The position numbers were made by a program, and so were the translations under genes. A stretch of DNA of 64,000 nt from assembly GCA_944392455.1 (NCBI GenBank), contig CALXWP010000007.1, forward strand, positions 43,559-107,558, written 5' to 3'. Of this stretch, positions 13,006 to 57,030 are shown piece by piece; position 1 is the stretch's first letter, and the number at the start of each line of letters is the position of its first letter. A model generated the notes under the pieces. The model was not told the origin of the DNA, made no database searches, and saw only the letters and a program-made list of their open reading frames with translations. The DNA comes from an uncultured Clostridia bacterium. GTDB taxonomy: Bacteria; Bacillota; Clostridia; TANB77; CAG-508.

Positions 13006-13034
13006 ATTATATCACTTTTTTACAGTATTTTCAA
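13006..13034 (-). promoter_or_regulatory. Sigma-A promoter (TTGAAA, 17-nt spacer, extended -10 TGATATAAT) for the 12535..12954 gene
   Basis: Read on the minus strand. An inverted repeat tagactt-tagg-aagtcta lies between the promoter and the RBS agagaggg. Confidence 0.45.
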
Positions 13035-38434: not shown

Positions 38435-38508
38435 TGGAGGCGACACCCGGATTTGAACCGGGGATCAGAGTTTTGCAGACTCGTGCCTTACCACTTGGCT
38501 ATATCGCC
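38435..38508 (-). tRNA. tRNA-Cys (GCA)
   Basis: Reverse complement GGCGATATAGCCAAGTGGTAAGGCACGAGTCTGCAAAACTCTGATCCCCGGTTCAAATCCGGGTGTCGCCTCCA forms a cloverleaf. Anticodon loop CTGCAAA. CCA is encoded. Confidence 0.9.
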
Positions 38509-38591
38509 ATATACTATAATATATGCTTATAAAAATAAAAAATTACAAATTAAATTAAATTTTATAAAAAATAAAAAAGCAGTAGTAAAAT

Positions 38592-38665
38592 TGGAGGCGA
38601 CACCCGGATTCGAACCGGGGATCAGAGTTTTGCAGACTCGTGCCTTACCACTTGGCTATATCGCC
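38592..38665 (-). tRNA. tRNA-Cys (GCA), second copy
   Basis: Identical to the first copy except one T-loop base. Confidence 0.9.
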
Positions 38666-38685
38666 ATATACTACTGCTTTTTTTG

Positions 38686-38761
<76 letters not shown>

Positions 38762-41328: not shown

Positions 41329-42696
41329 CTAATAACCTCTTTCTGTTCTTTGAGGAGCTCCATATTCTTCTGCAATTTCATCATGAATTGCTTCGATTTT
41401 TTCATCAGGAGTTTTTCCTCCTCTTTCATTATATCTTCGTACAAAATCATCAACATTAGAATGATCTTTTTCAGCTTCTTTTCTTAACGTTGTTTCTGAT
41501 CCATCTTCTAATACTATTATGTCATCTGCTGTTAATTGGTCATTACCTGCTGTATCATCCATATTTCTTAATTCTGTCTCTCCATCTCTTTCTATTTCTT
41601 CCTCTGATCTATCCAATTCATCTTCTATTTCTGTATTTTTAGTTTTATCCATTACCTCTCTAACTTCTCTAGTAGTTGGTCTTTGATTTTTTGTTTCGAT
41701 TGGTGCTGATAAATACCTTTCATCTTTATCTTTACTTAGATCTGCTCTTACATAATCAACTTCTAAAGTTCCATATTGTCCTACTCTAACTGAAAGCATT
41801 TCTTCTTGTCCATTTACTTTGCTTCTTCCATTAATTCTTACCATTCCTGCTACTTGTTCTTCTTGTACCACACTTCCATCTCTACTATTTATTGAAGTTA
41901 CAGTTTGCCCTGTTGTTGTTCCTTCTATATTTTGTAAACTATCTATAGTATGTACATTCCCATCTTTATCTAACCCAACAAATGAAAACCTACCATTTTT
42001 CCCCTTCGAATGATCAGAAAATACAACATTAACTTTAACAATTCCTTTTTCTTTTATTTCAGGAATCATATCTGCTAATGTCTCTGTTTGAGTAACTTTT
42101 GCATTTGGATCAATTTCCTGTTTTTCAGCTATCTTATCAAATTGGAGTTTTTGATTAGCTTTCATTGTAGAATATGCTTGGATATCTTCGGTTTCTAATA
42201 TTTTTGACATTTTATCCAATTCCTTATTTGATTGTTTTTCATCCAGTTCCTCTTTTGTTAAAACTAAATCTTCTTTTCCTAATTCTTCTGGAAGCTCAAA
42301 TTCAGCTTCATCTAAAGTTAATGTATCAAAATATTCTTTATTTACTTTTTCTAAATCCTCTAAAAATTCATGGTCAAATGTAACCTCTCCCATTTCGTTT
42401 ACAGTTGCTATTAATTTATTGTCTTTATCATATATTTCATAAGCTATTTTTTCCTGTTGGTCTTCATCTTCTCTAGATTTTGGTTTTTCTTGCTTTTTTT
42501 CGCTATCTTTGAGTTTAACAATATATGCATCATTTATAGCTAAGCCCGATCCTTTAAATTCAAAATCTCTATAATATCCAATATTATCTACTTCTTGATT
42601 TCTTGCTTCTAATTTTTCTGATATTTCTGCACGAAGATTTAACATATTATTAGTTACTTCATTTCTTTTCTTATCTTTCATATCTTCATCTCCCAA
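41329..42696 (-). CDS. Hypothetical acidic, highly charged soluble protein (last gene of the T4SS-like module)
   Basis: 455 aa. No TM segment, D/E/K-rich, no recognisable motifs. Confidence 0.4.
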   Translation of the reverse strand: MGDEDMKDKKRNEVTNNMLNLRAEISEKLEARNQEVDNIGYYRDFEFKGSGLAINDAYIVKLKDSEKKQEKPKSREDEDQQEKIAYEIYDKDNKLIATVNEMGEVTFDHEFLEDLEKVNKEYFDTLTLDEAEFELPEELGKEDLVLTKEELDEKQSNKELDKMSKILETEDIQAYSTMKANQKLQFDKIAEKQEIDPNAKVTQTETLADMIPEIKEKGIVKVNVVFSDHSKGKNGRFSFVGLDKDGNVHTIDSLQNIEGTTTGQTVTSINSRDGSVVQEEQVAGMVRINGRSKVNGQEEMLSVRVGQYGTLEVDYVRADLSKDKDERYLSAPIETKNQRPTTREVREVMDKTKNTEIEDELDRSEEEIERDGETELRNMDDTAGNDQLTADDIIVLEDGSETTLRKEAEKDHSNVDDFVRRYNERGGKTPDEKIEAIHDEIAEEYGAPQRTERGY

Positions 42697-42790
42697 TATT
42701 CTTATATTAATATTATACTTTAAATATCTATTTTTTTCAACAATATAGAATAAAGCAAATACTATAGTTAGTATTTGCTTTATTTTTAGC

Positions 42791-44155
42791 TTACTCTACA
42801 TTAAATGACATTGTAAAATTTGTTCCTTCTCCTAGCTTAACTATAAATGTTTTTGTTATAGCTTGGCTGTTTGCATTATTTTTATCTGTAAATTTCGCAT
42901 CAAATATATATAGATCTCCGCTGTTTTGATAATTAGAAAATTCTACATTGTTAGATGTATAGAATGTATTTTTTACATATGTTTCAAAATCAGCTTCTGT
43001 AGCAAAGTTATTTTGCCTAAATGTTGCATCTAATTTATTATATACATATGTATAATCTCCATCATTTATTGCATCTACAATTTTTTGAGAATTTAATCCA
43101 GCCTTTTCAGCATCATTTGAACTATTATATTCTTCAAGAAAATCAGGCAAATCTATTGTATATGTATCTAAAACTACATCATAATTTGTAATATTAGTTT
43201 CTGTGAAAATATAATATTTACCATATTGATCAATACATATATACTCTTTCTTTCCATCTATTGCATTTACTTTATATCCTTGAATACTTGCAGTTTCAAT
43301 ATTTAACTTATTATCATTTACATATTGTAAAAAGTTCTCATAACTTCCAAATTTAGCATCCCTATATTCTTGATTTAATAAATTGTATGCATCTTCTGTA
43401 TGTTGCGTCATTTTTTCTCTATATTCAGAAAAATATTGTTTTGTAATATACTCTTCTGTTGCAGAAACATCTAGGAAGGTATTATAATCGTTTACTTCAA
43501 TATTTCCAGAATTTATATTTATGGCATCATAACTCATATTTTCATTATAATTATATTTTTCTAAAAAATCTTCTAGAAATATAGAATAAGTATTATTAGT
43601 ATAGTCTATTTTTATTAATAAATTAAATGGTTTATTATTTAGATTTGCTGTAACAAATGCTATTTTTATATTACTGCTTATATCATATGTTAAAACATTT
43701 ACTAAATTTAAATCATAAGAAACAGTTGCTTGAAAGTTTCCATTTTGGCTATATTCTTTTTGTTTTTCTATTATCATATTATTTTCTATTGCTAAATCAG
43801 AAATATATTGTGTATCTAATATATTCTTTATTGCCTCTGTTCCTTGTCGTTCTGATTGTGTTTTTGCATCTTCTAGTGAAATACCAGCTTTTACAATATC
43901 AACATATGAGTCACCATTTATTTGTTTTACATATACTAAATAATTATTCAAAATTTCCTTGATTGTATAATATGTTTTATAATCACTTACAACTGAAAAT
44001 CCCACATTTTCGCTACTTTGTGTATTTGTTGCGTTTTCAGCATTTTCTCCATCTTCTTGTGCATTCCCTCTTGTATTAAATATGATAACTGCAGCTATTA
44101 TTATAATTACAAGAAGAATAGTTAATAATATTATTATATTTTTTAATTTTTTCAT
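42791..44155 (-). CDS. Membrane-anchored extracytoplasmic protein (possible TcpC/VirB8-like)
   Basis: 454 aa. Single N-terminal TM, N/Y-rich ectodomain. Assignment rests on position in the module only. Confidence 0.35.
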   Translation of the reverse strand: MKKLKNIIILLTILLVIIIIAAVIIFNTRGNAQEDGENAENATNTQSSENVGFSVVSDYKTYYTIKEILNNYLVYVKQINGDSYVDIVKAGISLEDAKTQSERQGTEAIKNILDTQYISDLAIENNMIIEKQKEYSQNGNFQATVSYDLNLVNVLTYDISSNIKIAFVTANLNNKPFNLLIKIDYTNNTYSIFLEDFLEKYNYNENMSYDAININSGNIEVNDYNTFLDVSATEEYITKQYFSEYREKMTQHTEDAYNLLNQEYRDAKFGSYENFLQYVNDNKLNIETASIQGYKVNAIDGKKEYICIDQYGKYYIFTETNITNYDVVLDTYTIDLPDFLEEYNSSNDAEKAGLNSQKIVDAINDGDYTYVYNKLDATFRQNNFATEADFETYVKNTFYTSNNVEFSNYQNSGDLYIFDAKFTDKNNANSQAITKTFIVKLGEGTNFTMSFNVE

Positions 44156-44199
44156 TATTTCCTCCTAGTCTGTTTTTTAGCTTTTGCTATTATTCTATA

Positions 44200-47100
44200 T
44201 TAATGATTGAAATATGAGAAATGCATATAGTCTTTTAAACTGGTCCAATCTCCTCCCCAGTAAAATCCATGACGTTTCCATATATTTATAATTTCTTCAG
44301 TTACTGAATATGGATCTGATCCTGGACTATAATGACTTCCTACAACAGTACCATCAGCATATATACAGTAATTTTGCTCCGGGTTAACATCAAATGCATG
44401 TCCATAAGTATGAGCAGATTGTGGGAATGTTCCTCTAAATCCTGCATCTGATCCCCATTGCCTATAACTAATATCTCCACCAACAATCTTAAATCCTGCA
44501 TCTGCCATTTCTTTAAAGATTGCCTGTACTTCTGTCTTTAATTTTCTATGCATTGTTACATTCATTGTTTGACGATTTCCATTTGCATCTAGGTATTCTA
44601 CTGGAAATGTTTCTAAATATTGATTATTTTCTGCTTCTGAAGTAGGAACTCCATTACCATCATAAAGCCAATCAATTCTCGCCTGCTCTCCTTCTATACT
44701 TGCTGCTTCTCCTAATTGTGCACTTCCTGAAGTATGATTATCTTCCCATGCTTGATACCATTTTTTAGCATTATCATATCTTGCTGCAGTTATATCTTTT
44801 GATGCATTAAAGTTATTACTACTACTAAAGAATACTTCATAATATCTTCCAAAGTACCATGTAGCATATTCTAGATCTGTTTCGCTTGTTGAATTCATTA
44901 AAACATCTTTTACATCACTATAGCTTCCTTCTAATTCTTGCCATATAAATTCACATTGTGTTTCTACATCTGTCCAGTCCGTTCCTTTAGAATTTGCTAG
45001 ATTTTGTAGATTCTGGAATCTATCTGATATTGCCCATTGACATAAACCATTATGTGTGCCGTTTGTTGCTGCTGGATCAAAACTACTTTCTGCTTCTATA
45101 TTTCCCATGATAGCTGCTACTCCTGCAGGTGGCATACCTTTTGCTAAGAAGAAATCAAATATTTGTCCTTGAACTCCATCTATTCCACTTGATGTTCCAT
45201 AGCTTCCGTTTAAAGAACTAAAGTTAGCTGGATCAAATACCTTATCAAAATCAAATGAATCTATTCCATCAAACTCTCTTCCTGTTGCACAATAAATCAA
45301 ATATTTAGTTAAGTCAACCATATCAACTGTTTTTTCATTTTCTTCTAACATTTCGAATAGCCATTCTGGTGCACTTAATATATTATTTCTTGTGTCATAA
45401 TGTTCTCTATCTTGTAATAAAGTTACAAAATTCACTTCATCTGTTTTTGATTTTGGTTCATCTTTAGGCCTTATATCTTTAGGTGAAGAAGTATATTTTT
45501 GAGAATCTATTATATTATGATTTGTAACTGTTCCATCAAGTCCATAATAGTAATCTGTTAAACATGTTACTTCTGTATTTACTGTATCTTTATCACTATA
45601 GTTTGATCTTACACTTGCTTCATAATCAGCTGCTATTCCACACGGATCTTCATTTGGAACATCAGGCTCATCTGGACTATCCGGATATTCTCTATTTTGC
45701 TCTAGATCTGAAGGGTCTCCAGCTCCTGGATCTGTTGTTTCATTTGGTTGATATTCAAAATCTTGTGTATACTCTACAATCCATACATCAGCCTTTGTAA
45801 CACTTATATTTAGTGTATCTGTTGTATTTTTAGTCGTATGAACAATTGTATAATTTTTTAATATTTCTTCTGTACTTCCTTCTGTATTAGTTTCATCAAT
45901 ATTTCCACTTGTACTTGTTGACTCACCTGTATTTGGATCCACTTCAGTATCACTCCAACTACCTGTTACATGTATATCATGTGTATGTACTTTTGTTTTT
46001 CTAGTATATTCATATGTATCTATATCAGTTACTGTCTTTACATTATCATGAATAGTAATTTCTATTTCACTATCAAATACTAAATCAGCTATATCTAATC
46101 CAAAGTCTTTATCACGTCCCGCAACAATCCATGCCCATAAGTAGTCAAATGGCATTTGATATCCACTTACCATACTTTGATAATCTACTGTTTGTGCAGT
46201 CATAGTATAGGTAGTATTTGCTTCTATATAATCTGTTATTGGTTCTGGATCTACTGATCCATCTCCTCCTGCAACAGATTCTTCGAATCTCTCATTCCAT
46301 GTTGCTACTTTTACAACATATTTAGTTTTAGCATCTCCTCCACTGCCTATAGTTCCTGTACCACTACCCATTCCATTTTCATATTTGAATGATAATGGAT
46401 CTACTTTTACACCATTTTGTCTTGTTTCAAAGTGTACGTGTGGTCCTGTTGATGTTCCTGTATTACCAGATTTAGCAATTACTTGACCTTGTGTTACAGT
46501 ATCACCAACAGATACTAATAATTCACTGTTATGATAATATCTGGTTACAAATCCTCCGCCATGGTCAATTTCAATCATATTTCCTGCGGAACTGTCATAA
46601 CAAGATATTGTTACTGTTCCATCTTTAGCTGCATATACATTTGTTCCTGTTGGAACCCCTATATCTATAGCTCCATGGTCTGTTGATGCACCAGCTGTTG
46701 GAGCATCTCTTAATCCAAAGTAAGATGTTATAGTTGTTCCATCCGTTGGCCATTTTAATGTATCTGAACTTGAGCTTGAGCTATTATTATCATCGTCATC
46801 ATTATCATTATTTGTAGTATTATTATCATTAGCTTCTATTTCTGAGTCCACTCCAAAATTAGGGTTTTCAAAGTAACTTCCACCGTTAACTGCTTTTACA
46901 ACTCTTGAATTCCATTCTGGATGATTAGATGGATTTCCTGGATTCTCTTTAATGCCATACCATGAGTCTCTATCTACAACAAATTCTACAACACATTGAC
47001 CATCATTATGCCCCCATTGGTTACATCCTGGATCATTTTGATTTTTAATATCACCTATTATACATGGAAGAACTATTCCATTTTCTAGATAAAAATCAAT

Positions 47101-47964
47101 ATAATCTCCAACTTGTCCAAAAGTTGTAGTACATGCAATAACATAACGTCCATTTATAATTCCGAAACCTTCTTCATCAAAATTTTGACCTGCCATTTCT
47201 CTTAATCTATATTGATTTGAACTAGGAGCTGTTATTAACTGCCACCCCATATATGTATAATAATTACCAAAACCTTCTGGAATCTCTATTACTGTACCAG
47301 CTTCTATTGTACCTGCCATTATACTAGAAGTTGAATACTGTTTTTCTATAGTAAAGTGGCTTAATGCAGTATTTTTGTCTGCGTCAGATCCGCTTGCATT
47401 ATATGCTTCTATATATGAGTTAAAAACTTCAGGAGACACATAGGTCATTGTTGAAATTGTTCCATCTTCTTTTGCTCTTTTAAATTTGATAATACCTTGT
47501 GTTTCTGTAGAATCTACATCATTGTTTAAATTCTTCCAAAATTCTTCATCTAATGGTTCATCAATTTCATCTGCTGGTCTTGTATCAGGATAGTTTGTAA
47601 CTATTTCTGCGTTCATTAATCTTGCTAACTCTTGTGGATTGTCTAAATATTCATCAACTCTACTATTATTTTTTAACATTTCATCCCATAATTCCTGGGC
47701 TGACATTGTTGTTCTTATAGTTCCATCTTGATCAATAATTACATCCTGTGTATATTGTGTGACTGCATACATTACATTTCCCATGTCACCTTCTTTATAT
47801 GATCCATCTTGTCTAGTCATTTCATATCCTAAACCACACACAACAATAACTACTATTAAAACAATAGCCAATACTGGAGCTAATGCTCTCGCTGCTACTT
47901 TAGCTCCTTTTTTTAGTATTTTTTTCATTTGATATTTAACTTGTTCAAAACCATTTCCCATCAC
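44200..47964 (-). CDS. Tri-domain peptidoglycan hydrolase: TM anchor + M23 endopeptidase + lysozyme-like (phage-tail-lysozyme type) + M15 (VanY-like) peptidase
   Basis: 1254 aa. M23 motifs HGAIDIG...D and GNTGTSTGPHVHFE. Lysozyme-like block AAIMGNIEAESSFDP. M15 block SAHTYGHAFDVNP...GGDW...DYMHF. Confidence 0.75.
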   Translation of the reverse strand: MMGNGFEQVKYQMKKILKKGAKVAARALAPVLAIVLIVVIVVCGLGYEMTRQDGSYKEGDMGNVMYAVTQYTQDVIIDQDGTIRTTMSAQELWDEMLKNNSRVDEYLDNPQELARLMNAEIVTNYPDTRPADEIDEPLDEEFWKNLNNDVDSTETQGIIKFKRAKEDGTISTMTYVSPEVFNSYIEAYNASGSDADKNTALSHFTIEKQYSTSSIMAGTIEAGTVIEIPEGFGNYYTYMGWQLITAPSSNQYRLREMAGQNFDEEGFGIINGRYVIACTTTFGQVGDYIDFYLENGIVLPCIIGDIKNQNDPGCNQWGHNDGQCVVEFVVDRDSWYGIKENPGNPSNHPEWNSRVVKAVNGGSYFENPNFGVDSEIEANDNNTTNNDNDDDDNNSSSSSSDTLKWPTDGTTITSYFGLRDAPTAGASTDHGAIDIGVPTGTNVYAAKDGTVTISCYDSSAGNMIEIDHGGGFVTRYYHNSELLVSVGDTVTQGQVIAKSGNTGTSTGPHVHFETRQNGVKVDPLSFKYENGMGSGTGTIGSGGDAKTKYVVKVATWNERFEESVAGGDGSVDPEPITDYIEANTTYTMTAQTVDYQSMVSGYQMPFDYLWAWIVAGRDKDFGLDIADLVFDSEIEITIHDNVKTVTDIDTYEYTRKTKVHTHDIHVTGSWSDTEVDPNTGESTSTSGNIDETNTEGSTEEILKNYTIVHTTKNTTDTLNISVTKADVWIVEYTQDFEYQPNETTDPGAGDPSDLEQNREYPDSPDEPDVPNEDPCGIAADYEASVRSNYSDKDTVNTEVTCLTDYYYGLDGTVTNHNIIDSQKYTSSPKDIRPKDEPKSKTDEVNFVTLLQDREHYDTRNNILSAPEWLFEMLEENEKTVDMVDLTKYLIYCATGREFDGIDSFDFDKVFDPANFSSLNGSYGTSSGIDGVQGQIFDFFLAKGMPPAGVAAIMGNIEAESSFDPAATNGTHNGLCQWAISDRFQNLQNLANSKGTDWTDVETQCEFIWQELEGSYSDVKDVLMNSTSETDLEYATWYFGRYYEVFFSSSNNFNASKDITAARYDNAKKWYQAWEDNHTSGSAQLGEAASIEGEQARIDWLYDGNGVPTSEAENNQYLETFPVEYLDANGNRQTMNVTMHRKLKTEVQAIFKEMADAGFKIVGGDISYRQWGSDAGFRGTFPQSAHTYGHAFDVNPEQNYCIYADGTVVGSHYSPGSDPYSVTEEIINIWKRHGFYWGGDWTSLKDYMHFSYFNH

Positions 47965-48093
47965 AAACTCCTTTTATTTATCCATTTATTATCAAAAATT
48001 TTTTATGCATATTTTATATATTATACTACTTTTTTCAACATTTTTCAATTGTAAACTACTTTGGTTCTATTGATCTTTTAACTACGTATAATT

Positions 48094-49050
48094 TTAGTTC
48101 AATGGTATTTCAAGTCTTTCATAATTATAGTTATAAAGTATGTCATAATTTGGTGCAATTTTTAAAAATACTATTTTATTTATAACCTTTTCTGAACTAT
48201 ATTTATTATAATACTTTATAGTAATTTCTTTAGTTTCATTTTGGCTTAATGTTAATTCTGGTTCACTTAATTCTTGAGAATATGCACCATACTGTATACC
48301 ATTTTCATCTTCTAAGTACATAGAATCAGTATATTCTCTATCATCTATAATAATTTCATCACTTGTCTTATTTGTTACACTAAATGTATATGTTTGATAA
48401 TCCATATATGTATCACTTCTTAATACCGTCATGCTTATTAAGTCATTTTCTCTTGTTTTATTTATTTCTTCTCTTCCTAAATAACTATTAATATTTAACT
48501 TATATTGTCCATCATCAGTTTCTATTACCCTTATATAATCTTGAATTACATTATCTTCCGAATAAACTCCTGTTGCTAAGAAATCTTCTGTAAATTCTAC
48601 TTTATATATATTTGCAAGCCAGTTTTCTACTGAAACTTTTCTTATATTTCCATTAAAAACCTTATCATAATAATTTGTAGTAAAAATTTCAACAGTATTA
48701 TACATTTCCTCTTTACATTCATCTGATAGCATATTATATGCTTCATTTATATTTTTTGCATTACAATATTCTGTAAATTGTTCTATAATTCCTGCCATAC
48801 TTACTTGTTTACTTGTAAGTTCTTCTCCTGAAATTACAGAATCCGCTGATTCCATTGTTATAGTATTAAAATTATTATTTATTGTACCTGTCACGCTAAA
48901 TAACCTATCGCCACTTTCATCATCATTATTGCTATGTTTCATTACATAAACTAAAATGATATTTATAAGTACTATGACAAGTGCAAAAAATAGTATTAAT
49001 AATATTTTTGGTTTATTCCTTATATACCACTCCGCAATTTTTTTTCTCAT
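48094..49050 (-). CDS. Hypothetical membrane-anchored protein (T4SS-like module)
   Basis: 318 aa. N-terminal TM. No recognisable motifs. Confidence 0.4.
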   Translation of the reverse strand: MRKKIAEWYIRNKPKILLILFFALVIVLINIILVYVMKHSNNDDESGDRLFSVTGTINNNFNTITMESADSVISGEELTSKQVSMAGIIEQFTEYCNAKNINEAYNMLSDECKEEMYNTVEIFTTNYYDKVFNGNIRKVSVENWLANIYKVEFTEDFLATGVYSEDNVIQDYIRVIETDDGQYKLNINSYLGREEINKTRENDLISMTVLRSDTYMDYQTYTFSVTNKTSDEIIIDDREYTDSMYLEDENGIQYGAYSQELSEPELTLSQNETKEITIKYYNKYSSEKVINKIVFLKIAPNYDILYNYNYERLEIPLN

Positions 49051-49140
49051 TTTTTTCTCCTTTAATCTTTATTTTTTAAAATAGAGCAGAAAATTTATTT
49101 TCTGCTCTTCTTTGATGTTTTATTTAGATATTAGCAATTA

Positions 49141-51975
49141 TTATATTGCACCTGTAATCTCCCTTACTCCATCAACATATTTCTTAACATCTTGTGGACT
49201 TAATCCTTTTTCTCCTAATCTAGACTCTAAGTCTTTAATTTTCTTGTTATCGTTTCCTACTTCACTTGCAAGGCCTGCAAGTAATACTCTTTCTTTACTA
49301 GCTCTATCATTTCCAAAGCCTTCTGCTTTCATTGCTTTTATAATCATCTCATCATCGGTTATACCATTTGCCCTATATTCTTGGGCTTCTTTCATAACTT
49401 TTTTGATATCTCCTTTTGGAATTTCTAATTTATCAGCATATAATTTTTGTCTATCCTTATCTTTCATAGCAGCTTTATCTTCTAAGTCTCTTTGTCTTTG
49501 TTTTTCAGCTTCTTCACCTTTGGTAGCGATAGTATATGTACTTGCAGCACTAGAAGCTGCTTCTTTTACAAAATCATCAGCACTTCCTACGGCTCCTAAT
49601 GCTCCACTTCCTGCAGCCCATCCGGCTGCAGCACCTGCTGCTCCGTATCTCAATATATTATTATCATCTCCTGAAGCTAAACCTCCTGCTACACCTAAAG
49701 TCGCTGCTGTCGCTGCTAAAGTTCCTTTTACTGCTGCTTTTCCAACTCTAGGTGCTGCATATTTTAATCCTTGCATTCCGACAGCTCCAACACCTTTTGC
49801 AATATTTCCAGCAGCTTTTGCTCCTTGTACCATATGTCCACCTAATGTCCTAGCTGAGTTCCTAATTGGTTTTGGTATTGATGTTCTAATTTTGTTTGCT
49901 CCACTTTGTACTGTATTTGCCATAGCTCTTACAGATTTAGCGCCTGCAGCTCCCAAATCTCTAGCAACCCTTACTGGTACAGTATTAGGTGCCCAATTAG
50001 CAAATCTATGTGCTACTGCTCTAGATTTATCTGAAACTTTATTCATTCTTGCTTGCAATCTGCTTCCTTGATAGCTATCACGTAAATATGTTCCTACGCC
50101 TCTTGTATCAGTTTCTCTAATTCTAGCCATTCCTTCTGCAATTTCTCTTTCTCTCCATTCTCTTTGCTCTTCTGCATTCATATCTTCTGGATATGTTGAA
50201 TTTATTCTATCTCTTAAAGCTTGTTGCTCTGCTGCAATTCTATCTCCTTCATCAGATCTTCCACTTGCATTTCTTTGTCTTTGATCTGCCAAACTATTTT
50301 GAGCAGATAATTGTCTTTGACCATTTGCCCCTTGTGAATCTGCATCTTGACCATTTTGATTTCTTCCGGTTATTTGATTCATTAAGTCTCTAGTCTTAAT
50401 TTTTCTAGCTGATGCTGCCGCACCAGAACCAGCTCCTCCACTTCCAGCTTTTCCACCAGCATTTCCTTTTTTGCTTCCAATACCTGCTATCTTCTTTATT
50501 TGACTTATACCAGCCATTGCTAAAGCTCCACCTATAGCTGATCCATTTGCATCTAATGTTGACGCTTTATCAAATCCAAAGAACCTTCTCATTATTTTTT
50601 CTGCTTGGAATATAAATCCTATTGCAACAATAGCATATATCATATTTACAGTTCCATCTCCACCGTCTCTTGCTGCTATGCTAATCGCAGATCCAACTAA
50701 CATTGTGTATAAAATCAAATGGAGTGGTTGTATTAATAAATTAAATACATATTCTTTTAACCACATATTAAATGCTTGTGCATTTCCATCCCCCATTTTA
50801 TCTAATGGATATGTCATAGCAACCAATGGTGCTATCATTGTTAAAAATGCTAACATTATTAATCTCTTTAGGTATACTACTAAAAATGCTATTGTATAAA
50901 TTACTAATATTAGGAATAAAACTGTATATCCTAATTGTCTTAATAATTCATTATCTTCTGTCGCACCTTCATCTAATTGTAATTGAATTCTAACTTGTCC
51001 CATTAGATTTGTAGGCCAATAATATTCGCTACTATCTTCATTTTCTATTAATCCATTTTCCACAAAGAATTCTGACGCATCTACTACGGATGCCTCTTTT
51101 TCTCCACTTTCTTCACTTATAACTTCTACTCTGTAATCTTCCTCTTTTAAATTAGGTAATGTAATAATTGTAGGTGTATTTAGTTCATTTATACCTTCTG
51201 AAATTGCTTCTACAACAGTAGTAGCAAAAGCCATTATATAATGCATAAAAAATAATATACACATTGCTACAATCCAGCTAAATAATTTTTCTTTATATTT
51301 TGCTTTGTCTTGTGCTGCACTGCTTGTAACTATTCTAATACCTATATATAGTAATACTGATAGTAAAACAACTAATGCAAAGTTTCTAAGTGTTAAATAC
51401 CAGCTTGAAATAGTACTTTGTAATTGAGAGGCTGTTGACACTTGTTCTGTTGATGTATCTCCATTTATTGCAGTAATTTGTTCATATTCATTAGGATTAA
51501 AGAAGTTTACATCCAAAAGTGCTATTTTATTTGCAAATATTTCTTCAGGACTTATAACATATATTGGTAAATAAACTGTTGGTGGCAACATATCTGCTGT
51601 TATTTTATATGCTGCATATGCTCCAATACCAGCTGCAACTAATGCAACTAAACTAAGTCCACCTGTAATAATTGCTGTACCTACAACTATTGCTATACCA
51701 ACTATCCATGCAACAACTGCGGGAAGTGTATCTCCTATTTCAGTGGATACTTTCGTCAGAGAACTTTCCATTCCAAATAAAATTCCCTGAATTAAATTCA
51801 TTATACCATCACCAATAGCTAATAATAAGTCAACTATTGGTGAAAGTAATGTTCCTCCTATTACTTCTGCAACGCCTGCCTGACTGATAGTTGGAGCTGA
51901 AAAGTTAAATAGTATTACTATTACTAAGATTATTGCTATCTTTAGTATCATGCTTTTACTTTTTAATATTTCCAT
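49141..51975 (-). CDS. VirB6-like polytopic membrane protein (TcpH/ConG/Orf15 class) with ~450-aa Ala/Gly/Arg-rich C-terminal extension
   Basis: 944 aa. Signal/TM then more than six TM helices in the first ~490 aa. The C-terminal half is hydrophilic and low-complexity (GNAGGKAGSGGAGSGAAASARK...). Sits immediately after the VirB4 gene. Confidence 0.5.
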   Translation of the reverse strand: MEILKSKSMILKIAIILVIVILFNFSAPTISQAGVAEVIGGTLLSPIVDLLLAIGDGIMNLIQGILFGMESSLTKVSTEIGDTLPAVVAWIVGIAIVVGTAIITGGLSLVALVAAGIGAYAAYKITADMLPPTVYLPIYVISPEEIFANKIALLDVNFFNPNEYEQITAINGDTSTEQVSTASQLQSTISSWYLTLRNFALVVLLSVLLYIGIRIVTSSAAQDKAKYKEKLFSWIVAMCILFFMHYIMAFATTVVEAISEGINELNTPTIITLPNLKEEDYRVEVISEESGEKEASVVDASEFFVENGLIENEDSSEYYWPTNLMGQVRIQLQLDEGATEDNELLRQLGYTVLFLILVIYTIAFLVVYLKRLIMLAFLTMIAPLVAMTYPLDKMGDGNAQAFNMWLKEYVFNLLIQPLHLILYTMLVGSAISIAARDGGDGTVNMIYAIVAIGFIFQAEKIMRRFFGFDKASTLDANGSAIGGALAMAGISQIKKIAGIGSKKGNAGGKAGSGGAGSGAAASARKIKTRDLMNQITGRNQNGQDADSQGANGQRQLSAQNSLADQRQRNASGRSDEGDRIAAEQQALRDRINSTYPEDMNAEEQREWREREIAEGMARIRETDTRGVGTYLRDSYQGSRLQARMNKVSDKSRAVAHRFANWAPNTVPVRVARDLGAAGAKSVRAMANTVQSGANKIRTSIPKPIRNSARTLGGHMVQGAKAAGNIAKGVGAVGMQGLKYAAPRVGKAAVKGTLAATAATLGVAGGLASGDDNNILRYGAAGAAAGWAAGSGALGAVGSADDFVKEAASSAASTYTIATKGEEAEKQRQRDLEDKAAMKDKDRQKLYADKLEIPKGDIKKVMKEAQEYRANGITDDEMIIKAMKAEGFGNDRASKERVLLAGLASEVGNDNKKIKDLESRLGEKGLSPQDVKKYVDGVREITGAI

Positions 51976-51984
51976 ATTCTCCCC

Positions 51985-54030
51985 CTAATACTTATTGTCC
52001 GTTCTTTTTCCTTTTTGTACTAATTTATTTAAGTTTGTTTCAACGAATTCAAATTCTTTTGCCGTAGGTCTTATTTGAATAATTGCACTATCTCCTCCTA
52101 CTTTTAATAATCCTTCTCCTTTTAAACAAGTTACTAGGAAATTAGCTTCTCCTTCACTTAATTTAAATACCTCTTTTAAGTATTGTATTTCAGCTTTATC
52201 TTGTGCTAAAAATAGTTTTGTATCTGATGAAGTCAAAACTGCTTGTGCTTCTGGTTTTTCATAGAAATCTTGGAATCTTTGTGAAATAATTGCAAGTGAT
52301 ACATTTCTTTTTCTAGCACGTCTTGCCATAGTATTTAAGAAATCTACGGCTTCTGGGAATGGAAGTAACATCCACGCCTCATCAACTAAAACTCTTTTCT
52401 TAGCAGCTTTTGTTCTATCTTCACTATTCTTTTTAACATATTTTTCCCATATCCACTCTAGCAATATTTGTTGTGCAAGTGGTCTTGCAAATTTTTCTTC
52501 AAGTTGTGATATGTCAAGATTGATGAATAAAGCTCCCTCTAATAAATCAAATGTAGACTGTCCATCAAAATATGCCATTTGTCCATCATATTCTCTTATG
52601 TATTGTTTCATAACTTTTAATAGATAACTATAATGGAAATTATAATCAGGGTTTTTGTTGTCATCTGCTTTCTTTTGTATTCTTCTATACCAAGAACCTA
52701 TAGTTGGCATATCCTTTTTCTTTCTACCTAACATATTACCAGATAAGCTTCCTCCTGTTTGAGCTGCTTCAAATAAACTGTTAGGATCACTATTTATTCC
52801 ATGTGCAGCATATTCTTCTGCAACAGATTCTGCAATAATTTGTTTTGTAAGCTCATTAACTTCTTCACTTCTTGTACTACCTTTAGCCATTGTAAGTAAA
52901 GCTTGTGTAACGTCCTCTACTTTGTTTTCTACATTCAATACTAATTTATCTCTACCTGTAATTTCATCTTTCACAATTTCTGTTTCAACATCAAATATAT
53001 TTATAACTGTTTTTGATGTTGGACTTATAACGACATTAATTCCTCCTAAACTTTCTGCCACTATGCTATATTCACCTTCTGCATCCAAAGCTAAACTTTG
53101 TACCCCCATTAGAACTGCAGACCTTGAAATTAATGTTTTCATTGTAACTGACTTTCCTGCTCCAGACTTAGCAAATATAACCATATTATAATTTGTAAGT
53201 GAGCTATGAAAATTATCAAAAAGCACTGGTACTCCAGTTTGTTTATTTATTCCTAAAGGTACTCCTGTAGAATGTCCAACTTCTGATGTTGTAAATGGAA
53301 ATACTGTTCCCATTGATCTTCTATCAAATGTATGTGTTTTCTTTATTTTATCATCCATTAATGGTAAATTTGATTTAAATGCTTCTTCTTGCATTCCCCA
53401 TGCACTCTTGATAGAAACTAATGATTTAGACATTTCTGTTGATAAAAGTTTTGTATATCTTTCTAGGTCTTCTAAATTATATGCAAATAAAGTTGAAACA
53501 ATTGAAGCTTCATATAATTTGTTAAATCCTGCTGCAATTTCATCTCTTAGCTCTTCTGCTTCTAATCTTTTTTGTCCTAGATCTGATTCTCTATTGATAT
53601 TTCCTCTATCAGCTGCAACTATTCTTTCTGTTTCTATTTCATTAATTACTCTGTTTAATTCATTTTGAGATCTTGATTCTGGAATTGGATTAATATATAT
53701 TGATGTATTAATATCTCCAAATAAGTACATATCTCTAAATAGTTCTGGGAATGTACACATTCTTGGAAGTGTTGATACAAAGAAGCTTCTTGCATATCTA
53801 GTTACATTAGAGATTATCTCTAAATGGTCTATGTTAGTTGCGTCAATTCCAGAAGGAGCTATAAGCTCTTTTATTGTTTTTTTCTTTAAAATTTGAAATT
53901 CATCTGGTTTTGTATAATCATTAAGCTGTCTTCGTTGTTCTTCTTCTCTTTGTTTTTTCTTTGCCATCTTCTTTTGTACCTCCTTCTTTACTTTGTTTTT
54001 TCTTTGCATTTCTCTCTGCTTTTTCTTCAT
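51985..54030 (-). CDS. VirB4-family type IV secretion ATPase (TcpF/ConE/TraE-like)
   Basis: 681 aa. Walker A FAKSGAGKSVTMKT, Walker B RVLVDEAWMLL, N-terminal region TRYARSFFVSTLP typical of Gram-positive VirB4. Confidence 0.85.
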   Translation of the reverse strand: MKKKQREMQRKNKVKKEVQKKMAKKKQREEEQRRQLNDYTKPDEFQILKKKTIKELIAPSGIDATNIDHLEIISNVTRYARSFFVSTLPRMCTFPELFRDMYLFGDINTSIYINPIPESRSQNELNRVINEIETERIVAADRGNINRESDLGQKRLEAEELRDEIAAGFNKLYEASIVSTLFAYNLEDLERYTKLLSTEMSKSLVSIKSAWGMQEEAFKSNLPLMDDKIKKTHTFDRRSMGTVFPFTTSEVGHSTGVPLGINKQTGVPVLFDNFHSSLTNYNMVIFAKSGAGKSVTMKTLISRSAVLMGVQSLALDAEGEYSIVAESLGGINVVISPTSKTVINIFDVETEIVKDEITGRDKLVLNVENKVEDVTQALLTMAKGSTRSEEVNELTKQIIAESVAEEYAAHGINSDPNSLFEAAQTGGSLSGNMLGRKKKDMPTIGSWYRRIQKKADDNKNPDYNFHYSYLLKVMKQYIREYDGQMAYFDGQSTFDLLEGALFINLDISQLEEKFARPLAQQILLEWIWEKYVKKNSEDRTKAAKKRVLVDEAWMLLPFPEAVDFLNTMARRARKRNVSLAIISQRFQDFYEKPEAQAVLTSSDTKLFLAQDKAEIQYLKEVFKLSEGEANFLVTCLKGEGLLKVGGDSAIIQIRPTAKEFEFVETNLNKLVQKGKRTDNKY

Positions 54031-55162
54031 TTATACTATTTATTGCATCTTGTGCAACATCATAACCAACAGCATCAGTATTTTGTTCTATAATTAATTT
54101 AGCTAAATTATCTATTAGATTATCCATGTTGTTTTCTTTCTTCTGTAAAGCTTTTTCTTTTGCTGATTGAGCTTCAATTACTTTTTCATTGGCTTTATTA
54201 AATGCTTCTTCTTCTATCTTCTCGTCTAATATTCTCATCTTCTTATCTAATACATCTTCTCCAGTTGAATATAGTTCGTCATATCCTGCTCTTAATGCTT
54301 TATCTAACCCGAAGACTTCTTGTTCATCTCTGTTATATGCTACATAAAGTAATTCAACTAATTCTTCTGAAATAAGTATTCTTCCATTAACTTCGCATCC
54401 TGCTAAAGTTCTTATAATTGATTGACATCTTGTATATAATTCTGAGAAAGCCATATTTGTTATTTCTTCTTTATCGAATTCATCAGTTCCTGAATCTTCA
54501 GGTATGTAAGGAACAATTATATAATAGTTCTGATTTAAAACATTTTTATTTAAACTCATCTTTTCTGTTGAATATATAATATCTTTTCCATACTCTGTAA
54601 GATTCCTTTGTTTTGTAAGTTCATAATACACTTGATCAAGCTGTTCTTTTGTGTAATTTCCTGAACTCTTCATTTCTCTATATCTCATTTCTTGTTTATT
54701 ATAATCATCTTCTATTTGTTTTACTCTATCTCTATAACCCTGTAAACTATTTTCTAGATTGATTGTTCTAGTTTGGACATATAACTGTACTGGATGTCTA
54801 ATAGTATTTAAGAATTGTATAAATCCTTCTTCAACAGCATTTTTTTCAACTTCTGACATTAAATCATAGTTTATTCCTTGGCATTCAATAACCATTATAT
54901 ATTTAAATCCATCTTTTTGTATTATCATATTATCTTCAATTCTATCAAACTCCATAAAGTCCATTACAGATTGAACTGCAAATGTTTTTGATTTTGGGAT
55001 TTCTTTTTCTTCTTCTCCAGTAGAAATTCTATCTGATTTTCCAACTTTCTTTTCTTTTTTGTTTTTTGTAGAAAAATATACTACTACAAGGGCTACTAAT
55101 AATATAATAATTAAAATTATTATAAACATTAAAATCATTCTTAAAGTTTCCATACTATCCAT
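53921..55162 (-). CDS. Hypothetical T4SS-associated membrane protein (N-terminal TM, coiled-coil, basic tail)
   Basis: 413 aa. Overlaps the annotated VirB4 start by up to 110 nt. Faint resemblance to a VirB4 N-terminal-domain segment (IIQKDGFKYIMVIECQGINYDLMSEVE). Confidence 0.4.
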   Translation of the reverse strand: MDSMETLRMILMFIIILIIILLVALVVVYFSTKNKKEKKVGKSDRISTGEEEKEIPKSKTFAVQSVMDFMEFDRIEDNMIIQKDGFKYIMVIECQGINYDLMSEVEKNAVEEGFIQFLNTIRHPVQLYVQTRTINLENSLQGYRDRVKQIEDDYNKQEMRYREMKSSGNYTKEQLDQVYYELTKQRNLTEYGKDIIYSTEKMSLNKNVLNQNYYIIVPYIPEDSGTDEFDKEEITNMAFSELYTRCQSIIRTLAGCEVNGRILISEELVELLYVAYNRDEQEVFGLDKALRAGYDELYSTGEDVLDKKMRILDEKIEEEAFNKANEKVIEAQSAKEKALQKKENNMDNLIDNLAKLIIEQNTDAVGYDVAQDAINSINEEKAERNAKKKQSKEGGTKEDGKEKTKRRRTTKTA

Positions 55163-55532
55163 TCTTTTCTTCCTCCTTATAAATATATATTTTTCTTCCT
55201 TTTGTTCTAAATTTTATGGCTCTTTTTATTATATCATCTATATTTTCTCCACCTGTTTTTTGTGCAAATTTAAATTTTCCTAAATTTGGCATTTTTAAAG
55301 TTCCGATTACAAATCCAATTAAAGCAAAAATTACTGTTATTACTATACCTACCATTGTTAGGCCAAATGCAGAAAATAAGAAATAAAATATAAGTCCACA
55401 AGATCCTCCAATTACAGTATACATCATACTTTTACCTGTGAAAATAAACAAAATTCTACCCTCACCTTTTACACTTCTTGGCAAGTTATATGTCCCCATA
55501 TATGCTTCCTCCTTCGTTAATCTTTTATCCAT
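55155..55532 (-). CDS. VirB3/TcpE-like small two-TM protein
   Basis: 125 aa. Two adjacent TM helices after a short cytoplasmic N-terminus. Directly upstream of the VirB4 region. Confidence 0.5.
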   Translation of the reverse strand: MDKRLTKEEAYMGTYNLPRSVKGEGRILFIFTGKSMMYTVIGGSCGLIFYFLFSAFGLTMVGIVITVIFALIGFVIGTLKMPNLGKFKFAQKTGGENIDDIIKRAIKFRTKGRKIYIYKEEEKNG

Positions 55533-55579
55533 ATTAATATAATTTATATTATAGCAGATTTTTTCCTAAAAAGATACAA

Positions 55580-55616
55580 AAAAAACAAAAAAAGTGCATT
55601 TGTAATGCACTTTTAA
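55580..55616 (-). terminator. Intrinsic terminator after the pilin gene array
   Basis: On the minus strand: aaagtgcattacaaatgcacttt, then a long T-run. Confidence 0.55.
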
Positions 55617-55656
55617 TATATTTGTAATATTATTGTAATGTTTCTGTAATATTATG

Positions 55657-56022
55657 TTATGCTGTTATACTTTGAGACATTGCTATTACTGCTTTGGCTA
55701 TAGCAGATGCACCAAATATAATTACAGCACCAACTAAATATGGGATCATAGTCTTCTTGTATTCAGCTTTTTCTGCAGCACTACCCATCATGTATTTAAT
55801 ACCTAATACTAATAATACCACTACTGCTACTATAATACCAACTGTTGTAATAATACTAATAATATTTTTACCAACATTTTGTATACCTGTTGTATTTGCA
55901 TTTCCTCCTGTCATTAATGAATCAACTAATCCTGAATCAGTTGCATATGCAGGTACTGCTAATACTGCAAGTAGCATTATTGATAATAAAATTATTGATA
56001 ATATTTTTACTGACTTTTTCAT
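55657..56022 (-). CDS. VirB2/TrbC-like pilin paralog 3
   Basis: 121 aa. Signal peptide (AYA-TD), TM1, charged loop GIKYMMGSAAEKAEYKK, TM2 YLVGAVIIFGASAIAKAV. Compare A. tumefaciens VirB2 ...ISWMFGRAS...IVIMFGASFLG. Confidence 0.6.
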   Translation of the reverse strand: MKKSVKILSIILLSIMLLAVLAVPAYATDSGLVDSLMTGGNANTTGIQNVGKNIISIITTVGIIVAVVVLLVLGIKYMMGSAAEKAEYKKTMIPYLVGAVIIFGASAIAKAVIAMSQSITA

Positions 56023-56106
56023 AATTTCCTCCTTTTATGTATATTAAAAATATATGTAATATCTCTTTTTGAGATAATGTTAAAATCATTAATAATATAT
56101 GTTTTG

Positions 56107-56496
56107 TTATTGTGTTGCATTTAGCATTTCTACAACTATTTTCCAGATTGCAAATGCACCAAATATTACAACACATCCTACTATATATGGTACAAGTAAT
56201 TCTTTTGTTTCCGCCTTTTGAGTTGAACTTCCTGTCATCATTTTTATTCCTATAATTAGTCCTACGATAACAGCAGCTACAATTCCTACTGCTAATAATA
56301 TGTTGTACATTACATTTGAAACATTTTTAAAACTATCCTCATCCATTACAGTATTTTCGGTTGTTCCCGAATTTAAAAAATTTTGTGCACCTCCAAAAAT
56401 TTTTCCTGGAGTTATATCATTTGCAGAAACTATTGTAATGTTAGCTATTATTATAAATATTATAATTATACTAAATGCTATTTTTAATGTTTTCAT
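56107..56496 (-). CDS. VirB2/TrbC-like pilin paralog 2
   Basis: 129 aa. Same architecture (GIKMMTGSSTQKAETKE...YIVGCVVIFGAFAIWKIV). Confidence 0.6.
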   Translation of the reverse strand: MKTLKIAFSIIIIFIIIANITIVSANDITPGKIFGGAQNFLNSGTTENTVMDEDSFKNVSNVMYNILLAVGIVAAVIVGLIIGIKMMTGSSTQKAETKELLVPYIVGCVVIFGAFAIWKIVVEMLNATQ

Positions 56497-56515
56497 CTTT
56501 ACTCCTTTTTAATAC

Positions 56516-56893
56516 TTACAAAGCATCAGCCACATCAATGATGACTGCTATGATTTGGCTTAAAGCAAAAAACAGTACTACACCAATTATATACGCTTTC
56601 ATACTCTTTTTATATTCAGCTTTTTCTTCAATGCTTCCAACCATATATTTTATTCCTAATGCCAGCAAAGCAACTACAGTAACTATAATTCCAATATATC
56701 TTATATAATCAACTAATGTCGCAGCAGCATCTGTAATTTCTTTTACATCATTTGTATTCATTTGTGGTGGTTCCCAACTGCTAGGATTTATAGTTTTAGG
56801 AACATCTGCATTAGACTGATTTGGAATCATTAATAGTATTACTAGAATAATGAATAATATAGTCAATATATGCTTCAATAGTTCTTTTTTCAC
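56516..56893 (-). CDS. VirB2/TrbC-like pilin paralog 1 (GTG start)
   Basis: 125 aa. Same architecture (GIKYMVGSIEEKAEYKK...YIIGVVLFFALSQIIAVI). RBS aaagaggtg. Upstream TTGAAA, 17-nt spacer, TATAAT promoter. Confidence 0.6.
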   Translation of the reverse strand: MKKELLKHILTILFIILVILLMIPNQSNADVPKTINPSSWEPPQMNTNDVKEITDAAATLVDYIRYIGIIVTVVALLALGIKYMVGSIEEKAEYKKSMKAYIIGVVLFFALSQIIAVIIDVADAL

Positions 56894-57030
56894 TTTTTCA
56901 CCTCTTTATTACATTATAATATATGAATTTACAATTTTCAACTTTTTTATGTATTATTTTATTATAATATTAGCATATCTTTTGTATATTGTCATCTTTG
57001 TAATACAAATATCACAAAAATGTAACATTT
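56894..57030 (-). promoter_or_regulatory. Promoter and control region of the pilin array
   Basis: TTGAAA attgtaaattcatatat TATAAT consensus promoter. Repeated ttgtaat/attacaa heptamers further upstream. A similar cluster (ttgtaatattattgtaatgtttctgtaat) lies at 55620-55660. Confidence 0.4.

Follow-up and report, generated by a model that had tools for sequence, protein, structure and literature searches.

In Patescibacteria (the candidate phyla radiation, CPR), the T4SS (type IV secretion system) is encoded on the chromosome with abundant TrsD and no relaxase, and its type IV coupling protein (T4CP) gene is unlinked to the cluster (PMC12102498; PMC10633639). In Southlakia epibionticum, this system is essential for epibiotic growth (PMC12102498; PMC10633639; PMC12857230). 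According to a 2025 review, VirB2 pilins are absent from Gram-positive T4SSs, and Patescibacteria are the sole exception, unique among monoderms (PMC12857230). How, then, should we understand a block of eleven genes that starts with three genes for VirB2-like pilins in an uncultured Clostridia bacterium of the lineage TANB77; CAG-508? The block occupies positions 41329-56941 of a stretch of 64,000 nucleotides of contig CALXWP010000007.1 (assembly GCA_944392455.1), and this whole stretch is called the window below. The explanation that we prefer, with a probability of about 0.6, is that it encodes a functional, conjugation-derived T4SS of the monoderm MPF-FATA lineage (MPF, mating-pair formation), of a TrsD-bearing subtype, which has been fixed as a vertically inherited chromosomal organelle and is not part of a self-transmissible element. 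Our literature search found no paper that describes this block in Clostridia.

All the eleven genes are on the minus strand, as are nearly all genes in the window, and their coordinates are collected in Table 1 together with candidate transcription signals. A first-pass annotation, made from the sequence alone, had listed the parts of the block in order, and both the open reading frames (ORFs) and the family matches agree with that inventory. In terms of T4SS parts, there are proteins resembling VirB1, VirB2 (three), VirB3, VirB4, VirB6 and VirB8 (two), together with TrsD. Each of the three pilins has a signal peptide and two transmembrane (TM) helices; the paralogues are 26-37% identical (26% between pilins 1 and 2) and have a loop motif in common, GIKxMxGSxxEKAExKK. 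The search with hidden Markov models (HMMs) proposed in the first-pass annotation as a check on its VirB2/TrbC-like pilins gave TrbC and T4SS_pilin matches from 5e-14 to 2e-5, of which those of pilins 1 and 3 are above the curated Pfam gathering cut-offs and both of those of pilin 2 just below. Pilin 2 also matches the NCBIfam Mbov_0395 pilin-like family (5.2e-5). Among species, pilin 3 is the best conserved of the three, with a median identity of 52%, and orthologues of pilin 1 are 31-65% identical.

Next to the pilin genes comes the core of the machinery. The protein that had been called VirB3/TcpE-like is a two-TM hairpin of the PrgI family, and its gene is parted from that of VirB4 only by the TrsD gene; its ORF could start at 55532 to give 125 aa, and 114 aa is the gene call in relatives. 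What had been described simply as a 413-aa membrane protein does have a membrane anchor, and can now be specified as a TrsD/TraC-like relative of the N-terminal part of VirB4: it matches NCBIfam TrsD (5.2e-4) and positions 54-246 of the Mbov_0397 VirB4 family (2.1e-5), a protein identical to it carries PF26593 (TraC-like) in precomputed annotation, and its homologue on a Clostridium botulinum plasmid scores 4.4e-41. The VirB4 ATPase is well supported by P-loop_TraG (2.4e-15), CD1110-family VirB4 (3.1e-58), TraC-F-type (8e-41) and the PDB entry 4AG5 (5e-25), and its Walker motifs, GKS (A) and DE (B), do not vary among relatives. As to its start, the gene is most likely the one of 660 aa found in all databases rather than the 681-aa ORF, so that the start was corrected to 53967. 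The 660-aa protein has an identical database counterpart, encoded on gut-metagenome contigs that show the same gene order, and an exact database look-up with the 681-aa ORF returned no record. The trsD-like gene and the virB4 ORF overlap (53921-54030), and the first 21 codons of the 681-aa ORF with the next 43 nt form an imperfect 43-nt tandem duplication of Lys-rich coding. The only PHROGs match, of VirB4 to a family labelled 'terminase large subunit', was rejected as cross-similarity of P-loops, because no other phage gene is present.

The part of the block downstream of virB4 is less easily assigned. The 944-aa protein has the polytopic topology that had suggested VirB6 in the first-pass annotation, and its conserved motifs are all within residues 143-467. 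Sequence support is weak: TrbL_4 is matched by 6 of 25 orthologues (best 5.4e-4), the protein of the window matches NCBIfam TraJ (9.4e-4) and also pLS20_p028 weakly, and its family profile gave nothing significant against PDB sequences. A T4SS_pilin-like hairpin is found around residues 183-244 in 22 of the 25 orthologues. By its position directly after virB4, its topology and these matches, the protein may be a VirB6 analogue. Gram-positive VirB8-like components are typically bitopic proteins of the NTF2 fold, and two proteins of this form are present. The 454-aa protein, proposed before as possibly VirB8-like, bears this out at the level of the fold, since its AlphaFold2 model (pLDDT 87.5) has three NTF2-like domains behind the TM anchor. 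The 318-aa protein, noted previously only as anchored, is indeed so, and its remainder is now resolved as an NTF2-like domain followed by a beta-sandwich. The tri-domain cell-wall hydrolase was recovered with its Peptidase_M23 (5.3e-33), Phage_lysozyme2 (6.1e-29) and Peptidase_M15_4 (3e-19) domains, and would take a VirB1/PrgK-like role. Finally, the 455-aa acidic protein has no family match in Pfam or NCBIfam, and nothing recurrent emerged from a Pfam tally on 25 of its orthologues; the family profiles of the 454-, 318- and 455-aa proteins found nothing significant among PDB sequences.

Table 1. Genes and candidate transcription signals of the block (positions in the window)
Feature	Position	Strand	Remarks
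Promoter candidate, sigma-70-like, TTGAAA-17-TATAAT	56913-56941	-	About 20 nt upstream of the pilin 1 gene; 11/12 consensus matches
Pilin 1, VirB2/TrbC-like, 125 aa	56516-56893	-	Pfam TrbC 2.6e-9, T4SS_pilin 2.9e-9
Pilin 2, VirB2/TrbC-like paralogue, 129 aa	56107-56496	-	TrbC 9.5e-6, T4SS_pilin 1.9e-5
Pilin 3, VirB2/TrbC-like paralogue, 121 aa	55657-56022	-	TrbC 5.2e-14, T4SS_pilin 3.2e-7, DUF3852 3e-4
Hairpin, terminator-like, with T-run	55590-55614	-	11-bp stem; between pilin genes and machinery genes
PrgI-family (VirB3-like) protein, 114 aa	55155-55499	-	Two TM segments; Pfam PrgI 3.4e-7, above cut-off
TrsD/TraC-like protein, 413 aa	53921-55162	-	N-terminal TM anchor and cytoplasmic domain related to the VirB4 N-terminal part
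VirB4-family ATPase, 660 aa	51985-53967	-	Sole ATPase of the block; Pfam, NCBIfam and PDB matches
Polytopic protein, 944 aa	49141-51975	-	About seven TM segments within residues 1-470, then a long C-terminal tail, hydrophilic and Gly/Ala/Gln-rich
Bitopic protein, 318 aa	48094-49050	-	TM anchor, NTF2-like domain, then beta-sandwich domain; VirB8-like candidate
Wall hydrolase, membrane-anchored, 1254 aa	44200-47964	-	M23 (LytM), lysozyme-like and M15_4 domains; TM anchor
Bitopic protein, 454 aa	42791-44155	-	TM anchor and three tandem NTF2-like domains; VirB8/TcpC/TraM-like candidate
Perfect 16-bp hairpin	42749-42784	-	Between the 454-aa and 455-aa genes; putative function only
Promoter-like site	42740-42712	-	Just after the 16-bp hairpin, ahead of the 455-aa gene
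Acidic soluble protein, 455 aa	41329-42696	-	24.6% Asp+Glu; no TM segment; distal end of the block

How widely is such a block distributed? Relatives were collected by a genome scan, one genome per species, with a four-sequence VirB4 alignment as the query, and the best 80 of 540 related stretches were analysed (loci are designated by L and a number where necessary). These 80 stretches come from 80 different species, all in one clade of uncultured gut Clostridia and Clostridium metagenome-assembled genomes (MAGs), with L059 as the sole exception; its record is titled Bacteroidaceae, a label that probably comes from a mis-assigned bin. The carrier MAGs were obtained from human, mouse, rabbit and ruminant guts, and carrier genomes are small, about 1.5-1.75 Mb; among them are complete chromosomes (1.57 and 1.70 Mb) and Clostridium sp. 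CAG:780. The gene order is conserved in at least 80 species: pilins, PrgI, TrsD, VirB4, the 944-aa-like protein, the 318-aa-like protein, the large hydrolase and the 454-aa-like protein, with the 455-aa-like protein frequently added at the end. Apparent gaps are explained by contig ends, by other sets of hydrolase domains, or by expansion of 944-aa paralogues, which pushes later genes off the locus. The neighbours, too, are mostly kept: the Spo0E-like gene and the genes of two M16 peptidases, M16a and M16b, lie at one end of the block and dacB at the opposite end. In a subgroup (L070-L083; for example, L078:966-5503 and L072:2844-7491), the block instead follows directly after mnmE-mnmG-rsmG-parA-parB, which replaces Spo0E/M16; from the usual position of such genes, this neighbourhood would be close to the replication origin.

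Within this constant frame, individual parts vary. The number of pilin genes is mostly three and ranges from two to six. In nine loci (L020:7038-7850, L031, L052, L054, L061, L062, L066, L069:6232-7260 and L075) there are pilin genes encoding 260-340 aa, that is, the pilin domain with a long extra region, and in L072 one more pilin-like gene, of 268 aa, lies downstream of the block. The gene of the 944-aa VirB6-like protein occurs downstream of virB4 in two or three tandem divergent copies in L024, L030, L056, L065, L077 and L078. The large anchored hydrolase keeps its position while its catalytic domains are swapped, so that M23 with lysozyme2 and M15_4, C39_2 with GDSL, lysozyme and CHAP, or C39_2 with a metallophosphoesterase can be found in the same slot (L047:15534-19310 and L054:15383-19204 are examples, and so is L084:15665-17713, a C39 peptidase on a botulinum plasmid). 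The 455-aa protein stands at the distal end in about half of the loci covered, and its orthologues in 40 loci are 23-78% identical.

The first-pass annotation had advised examining in relatives whether the block is conserved as a unit and under purifying selection; this comparison was run, and both were found. Identity of VirB4 across the 80 species is 82-98% (median 86%), compared with 51-88% for the neighbouring M16 peptidases. Pairwise distances of VirB4 and M16a are correlated with a Spearman coefficient of 0.88 in 46 species, which is at least as good as the coefficient between the two M16 genes themselves (0.79), and VirB4 changes at 0.43 times the rate of M16a. Approximate dN/dS ratios, estimated by the Nei-Gojobori method between the window and four other species, are 0.04-0.06 for VirB4, 0.07-0.11 for PrgI, 0.08-0.18 for TrsD and 0.08-0.12 for M16a, while the exposed parts give higher values: 0.15-0.5 for the pilins and 0.16-0.72 for the 944-aa, 318-aa, hydrolase and 454-aa proteins. 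This is the pattern of a vertically inherited functional system, in which the motor is tightly constrained and the exposed parts diversify. Because the same locus and order are kept in at least 80 species and VirB4 tracks M16a, the distribution is not the patchy, host-incongruent one of an ICE (integrative and conjugative element). As to composition, which had been said at first to match the host, the G+C content of the block is 0.25-0.355, within or just above the range in the window (0.21-0.34), whose overall value is about 28%.

Regulation seems to be part of what is conserved. Where the first-pass annotation placed a terminator after the pilin genes, there is indeed a terminator-like hairpin (55614-55590), and in all of the 55 species that could be judged an equivalent hairpin with a T-run separates the last pilin gene from prgI; in distant species, its stem has a different sequence. 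That it is kept in 55 of 55 species points to an arrangement in which pilin transcripts exceed machinery transcripts, and it is probably a leaky terminator setting the ratio of pilin to machine. The promoter candidate ahead of pilin 1 is to be taken as a consensus match only, as just as many such sites are expected in the region after shuffling of its sequence.

What is missing from the block is as characteristic as what is present. Among window ORFs of at least 100 aa, there is no family match for VirD4/TcpA, relaxase, integrase or replication proteins, in agreement with what had been said at first about the block and its flanks. Had a coupling ATPase and a relaxase been waiting immediately beyond the window, the block would have been placed in an ICE, but the approximately 7 kb beyond its left edge contain housekeeping genes only and no transfer functions. 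In the 80 related loci, every unannotated ORF of at least 400 aa and the commonest smaller ones within 10 kb on either side were scanned, and 79 of the 80 species have no T4CP, relaxase or integrase there. The flank ORFs are mostly housekeeping genes such as nrdD, mnmE/G, rsmG, parA/B, prs and rpsB. Relaxase families were absent from all window and scanned flank ORFs, and in the absence of a relaxase model there is no way to recognise an oriT. No att-like direct repeats bracket the block, the sole real family of direct repeats being the three pilin genes themselves. The only T4CP near any of the 80 modules is an ORF of VirD4 type at L069:259-1749 (T4SS-DNA_transf 2.4e-71), which is located upstream of M16b/M16a, outside the block at a distance of about 5 kb, and is truncated at the edge of the locus. 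It has no homologue in any other locus or in the window, and is probably part of an unrelated inserted element.

In composition and order, this block corresponds to the Patescibacteria-type cluster, with a pilin array, PrgI, TrsD, VirB4, a putative VirB6, wall hydrolases and no relaxase. The Patescibacteria system, for example that of Southlakia epibionticum (SEML1_0006-0019), is likewise chromosomal in a monoderm with a small genome (PMC10633639; PMC12102498), its VirB2-like pilins form divergent arrays (about 25% identity on average, versus 26-37% here), PrgI/VirB3, TrsD, VirB4 and a VirB6-like protein are followed by peptidase and lysozyme functions downstream of virB4, and the cluster has neither relaxase nor T4CP. 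Even the presumed origin-proximal site in the subgroup mentioned above echoes the dnaA-proximal site of some Patescibacteria. There are differences as well: the host here is of a Clostridia lineage, two clear NTF2-fold VirB8-like proteins are present whereas such proteins are rarely detectable in Patescibacteria, and peptidase and lysozyme are fused into one giant hydrolase. The closest described counterpart is the Patescibacteria T4SS rather than the Gram-negative ComB system to which the block had been likened at first.

On plasmids, the nearest VirB4 (42% identity) is found on C. botulinum plasmids of the pINGR16-02E1 type (NZ_KT897276) and on a C. beijerinckii plasmid, and no other plasmid homologue exceeds about 33% identity; for representatives of 50%-identity clusters, which come without taxon labels, the nearest are 65% and then 41% identical. 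The botulinum plasmid examined, pINGR16-02E1, carries a pilin, PrgI, TrsD, VirB4, a large membrane protein and a large (C39) peptidase in the same order as the block, but it differs in having a single pilin gene, a tyrosine recombinase gene nearby, and components downstream of VirB4 that are not detectably homologous to those of the block, besides being a plasmid. It is typed as non-mobilizable by MOB-suite, that is, without a recognised relaxase. The cluster itself (L084, NZ_KT897276.1, 9216-17713) is found on a family of C. botulinum plasmids of 134-144 kb and may be an unrecognised conjugation or pilus system. Among ICEs, those of Mycoplasma provide the best NCBIfam matches for the pilins (Mbov_0395) and share a TrsD-like part separate from the rest of VirB4 (Mbov_0397), although all scores are far below the family cut-offs. 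These Mycoplasma conjugation genes are part of mobile ICEs, elements equipped with a coupling protein. The premise of the first-pass annotation that Gram-positive T4SSs normally lack VirB2-type pilins thus needs revision in view of the core on the botulinum plasmid, the pilin-like family of Mycoplasma ICEs and Patescibacteria.

The classical Gram-positive conjugation systems, pGO1/pSK41 Trs, pIP501 Tra and pCF10 Prg/Pcf, have in common with the block TrsC/PrgI (VirB3), TrsD and TrsE/PrgJ (VirB4), a multidomain hydrolase, and proteins of the NTF2 fold (TraM/PrgL/TcpC). In pCF10, the hydrolase is PrgK, annotated at NCBI as a phage tail tip lysozyme and built of LytM-SLT-CHAP domains. When HMMs of the module were compared with the Prg proteins of pCF10, only VirB4-PrgJ was significant, the other E-values being meaningless in so small a database. 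These systems differ from the block in having VirD4/PcfC, relaxase and oriT, and adhesins in place of VirB2 pilins (PMC12857230). The archaeal Ced/Ted systems and ComB of Helicobacter pylori resemble it in that VirB2-, VirB4- and VirB6-like parts operate there with neither a coupling protein nor a relaxase (PMC9905601), but no specific sequence relationship extends past the P-loop, the envelopes are different, and ComB has outer-membrane core proteins. One more candidate was a 'conserved pilin' locus reported in TANB77 (PMC11680825), which was rejected as it concerns a Tad (type IVc) pilus cluster; in Pfam and NCBIfam, none of the block proteins matches CpaF/TadA, the TadB/C platform, TadZ/CpaE or pilins of Flp/TadE type.

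What can such a machine do without a coupling protein? Pilus building is the work of VirB4 with VirB3, VirB6 and VirB8, by which the VirB2 pilin is extracted from the membrane. Substrate transfer requires VirD4, pilus assembly does not, and deletion of VirD4 results in hyperpiliation (PMC13463995). Since all parts for assembling a pilus are present, the VirB6-like one as a candidate, with a wall-opening hydrolase and no coupling protein, the block would most simply encode a dedicated builder of a pilus or conduit. From the parts, we infer the following scheme. Three pilin paralogues would be made in excess from their own promoter, the leaky terminator lowering read-through into the machinery genes, and would enter the membrane via Sec. 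VirB4, docked to the membrane by PrgI/VirB3 and TrsD, might then extract them and polymerise them on a platform of the 944-aa VirB6-like protein and the two NTF2-fold VirB8-like proteins, while the anchored three-domain hydrolase would open peptidoglycan locally to let the structure cross the wall. Without a coupling protein, pilus production would remain the default mode of the machine, and the resulting pilus or conduit may serve for contact with cells or surfaces, perhaps also for exchange of materials, as proposed for the T4SS of Patescibacteria. The non-conjugative T4SS suggested by the first-pass annotation is better supported than the other possibility it offered, an ICE remnant, and falls short of proof.

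Several points weigh against our reading. To our knowledge, a pilus has never been shown for any Gram-positive T4SS. Values of dS are near saturation (0.6-1.3), which is why the dN/dS ratios given above are approximate. The VirB6 assignment of the 944-aa protein depends on weak matches, and as the NTF2 fold is generic, 'VirB8-like' should be taken as a statement on predicted fold and topology. In addition, the T4CP gene is far from virB4 in many systems (PMC12102498), and our searches covered the window and 10 kb on either side of the related modules. This last point favours a resident conjugation channel, in which the chromosomal mating-pair-formation apparatus is used by a coupling protein and a relaxase encoded elsewhere, on the chromosome or on mobilisable elements. 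The closest relatives of the engine, CD1110-family VirB4, PrgI and TrsD, are all of the conjugation type, and L069 does have its VirD4-type gene about 5 kb from the module. However, housekeeping genes stand between that gene and the module, no other locus has a counterpart of it, no T4CP or relaxase lies within 10 kb in 79 of the 80 species, and the fixed site, the divergence in step with the host and the very low dN/dS, seen in at least 80 species, do not resemble the machinery of mobile elements. We regard such a channel as unlikely, if still worth keeping in mind. The opposite idea, a decaying ICE remnant stripped of its DNA-processing genes, was raised in the first-pass annotation, and the lack of coupling protein, relaxase and integrase in the block and the tRNA genes 2.6 kb away might have recommended it. 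It is hardly credible now that the eleven genes are found intact, colinear and syntenic in dozens of species (at least 80 for the block as a whole), diverging together with their flanks, with VirB4 better conserved and under stronger purifying selection than the housekeeping genes at its flanks, the regulatory hairpin kept, no flanking direct repeats, and cdd and dacB standing between the tRNA genes and the block.

Two other uses would dispense with a coupling protein as well. A machine for uptake or release of DNA, akin to archaeal Ced/Ted import or to ComB of H. pylori, is suggested by the parts, which fit the minimal Ced/Ted set of pilin, VirB6-like and VirB4-like proteins (PMC9905601) with no T4CP or relaxase nearby, and small genomes may depend on scavenged nucleotides. 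VirB4 also matches NCBIfam CedD weakly (6.3e-6), but this match is confined to the P-loop region and far below the cut-off, no DNA-binding or competence protein is found in the block or its flanks, and the essential role of the Southlakia T4SS is independent of ComEC-mediated transformation (PMC12857230, summarising PMC10633639); we find this explanation quite improbable. The other use is a two-step or contact-dependent export of the 455-aa protein or of Sec-exported proteins to bacteria or host cells, in the manner of Ptl or of Brucella VirB. Effector systems without T4CP do exist (PMC12102498; PMC12857230), the block ends with a conserved soluble acidic protein having its own promoter-like site, and its extracellular components evolve fast, as expected if they interact with targets. 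Nevertheless, no effector, toxin or immunity pair can be recognised, the 455-aa protein matches neither a family nor a solved structure by sequence, and a monoderm needs no second step across an outer membrane, so that protein export seems to us very improbable.

As for the surroundings, the other window ORFs of at least 100 aa include housekeeping genes: lepB, holB, lgt, UDG, PNP, cdd, dacB, the Spo0E-like gene, the two M16 peptidase genes, and genes of a 2-oxoacid:ferredoxin oxidoreductase, a two-component system, a GH94 enzyme, an amidase, an acyl-CoA ligase and a GH25-LysM lysozyme. The remaining ORFs outside the block are two for giant thioester-domain adhesins and a few without a family match. 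The former are encoded adjacently on the minus strand, 4 kb from the block (26842-32685, 1947 aa; 33022-37356, 1444 aa). In both, a thioester (TED) domain at the N-terminus goes with multiple DUF11 repeats, repeats of SpaA type being present only in the 1947-aa protein, and from these domains they look like paralogous covalent adhesins. At 13031-21164, a 1750-aa protein of GH94/glucoamylase type, a type known from cyclic beta-1,2-glucan or cellodextrin phosphorylases, precedes one of 964 aa without a family match. A cluster of tRNA-Cys, tRNA-Cys and tRNA-Gly genes, overlapped by a spurious 111-aa ORF, is located at 38435-38761, and it is not an obvious integration site because cdd, dacB and the PNP gene stand between the tRNAs and the module. 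In relatives, insertions between the pilins and the M16 genes are apparently tolerated and leave the module undisturbed. These are small mobile or selfish insertions in single species and include an rve/Mu-type transposase pair (L010:4334-6367) and a PDDEXK_2 transposase (L028:5596-6528), and AAA_14/DUF4143 ATPases are found at the same place in L062:4431-5660 and L073:1099-2433.

Here, a pilin-bearing, relaxase-less monoderm T4SS of the Patescibacteria type is newly found to be fixed in a large clade of reduced-genome gut Clostridia, and a plasmid-borne relative in Firmicutes with the same core order, pilin-PrgI-TrsD-VirB4, exists. This is direct evidence that Firmicute systems of the MPF-FATA type can carry VirB2-like pilins, a point that a previous study had left open in considering the origin of the pilins of Patescibacteria (PMC12102498). 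Has the same machine been domesticated twice? By analogy, it might be imagined that small-genome gut Clostridia use the T4SS as an indispensable contact organelle on or with other gut bacteria, through convergent or shared domestication in a second phylum, and that the Firmicute pilin-PrgI-TrsD-VirB4 family was the monoderm source of the Patescibacteria system, pilins included; we offer this as a speculation, and a rather doubtful one. The clade that carries the block is abundant in human, mouse, rabbit and ruminant metagenomes, and it provides a second lineage, independent of the first, for studying the function of a monoderm T4SS that bears pilins and lacks a relaxase. The fast-evolving pilins, 944-aa protein, hydrolase and NTF2-fold proteins would be suitable as strain-level surface markers and are possible targets of immunity or phages. 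For those gut Clostridia that have reduced genomes and are hard to culture, the system is a candidate explanation of how they interact with partner cells.

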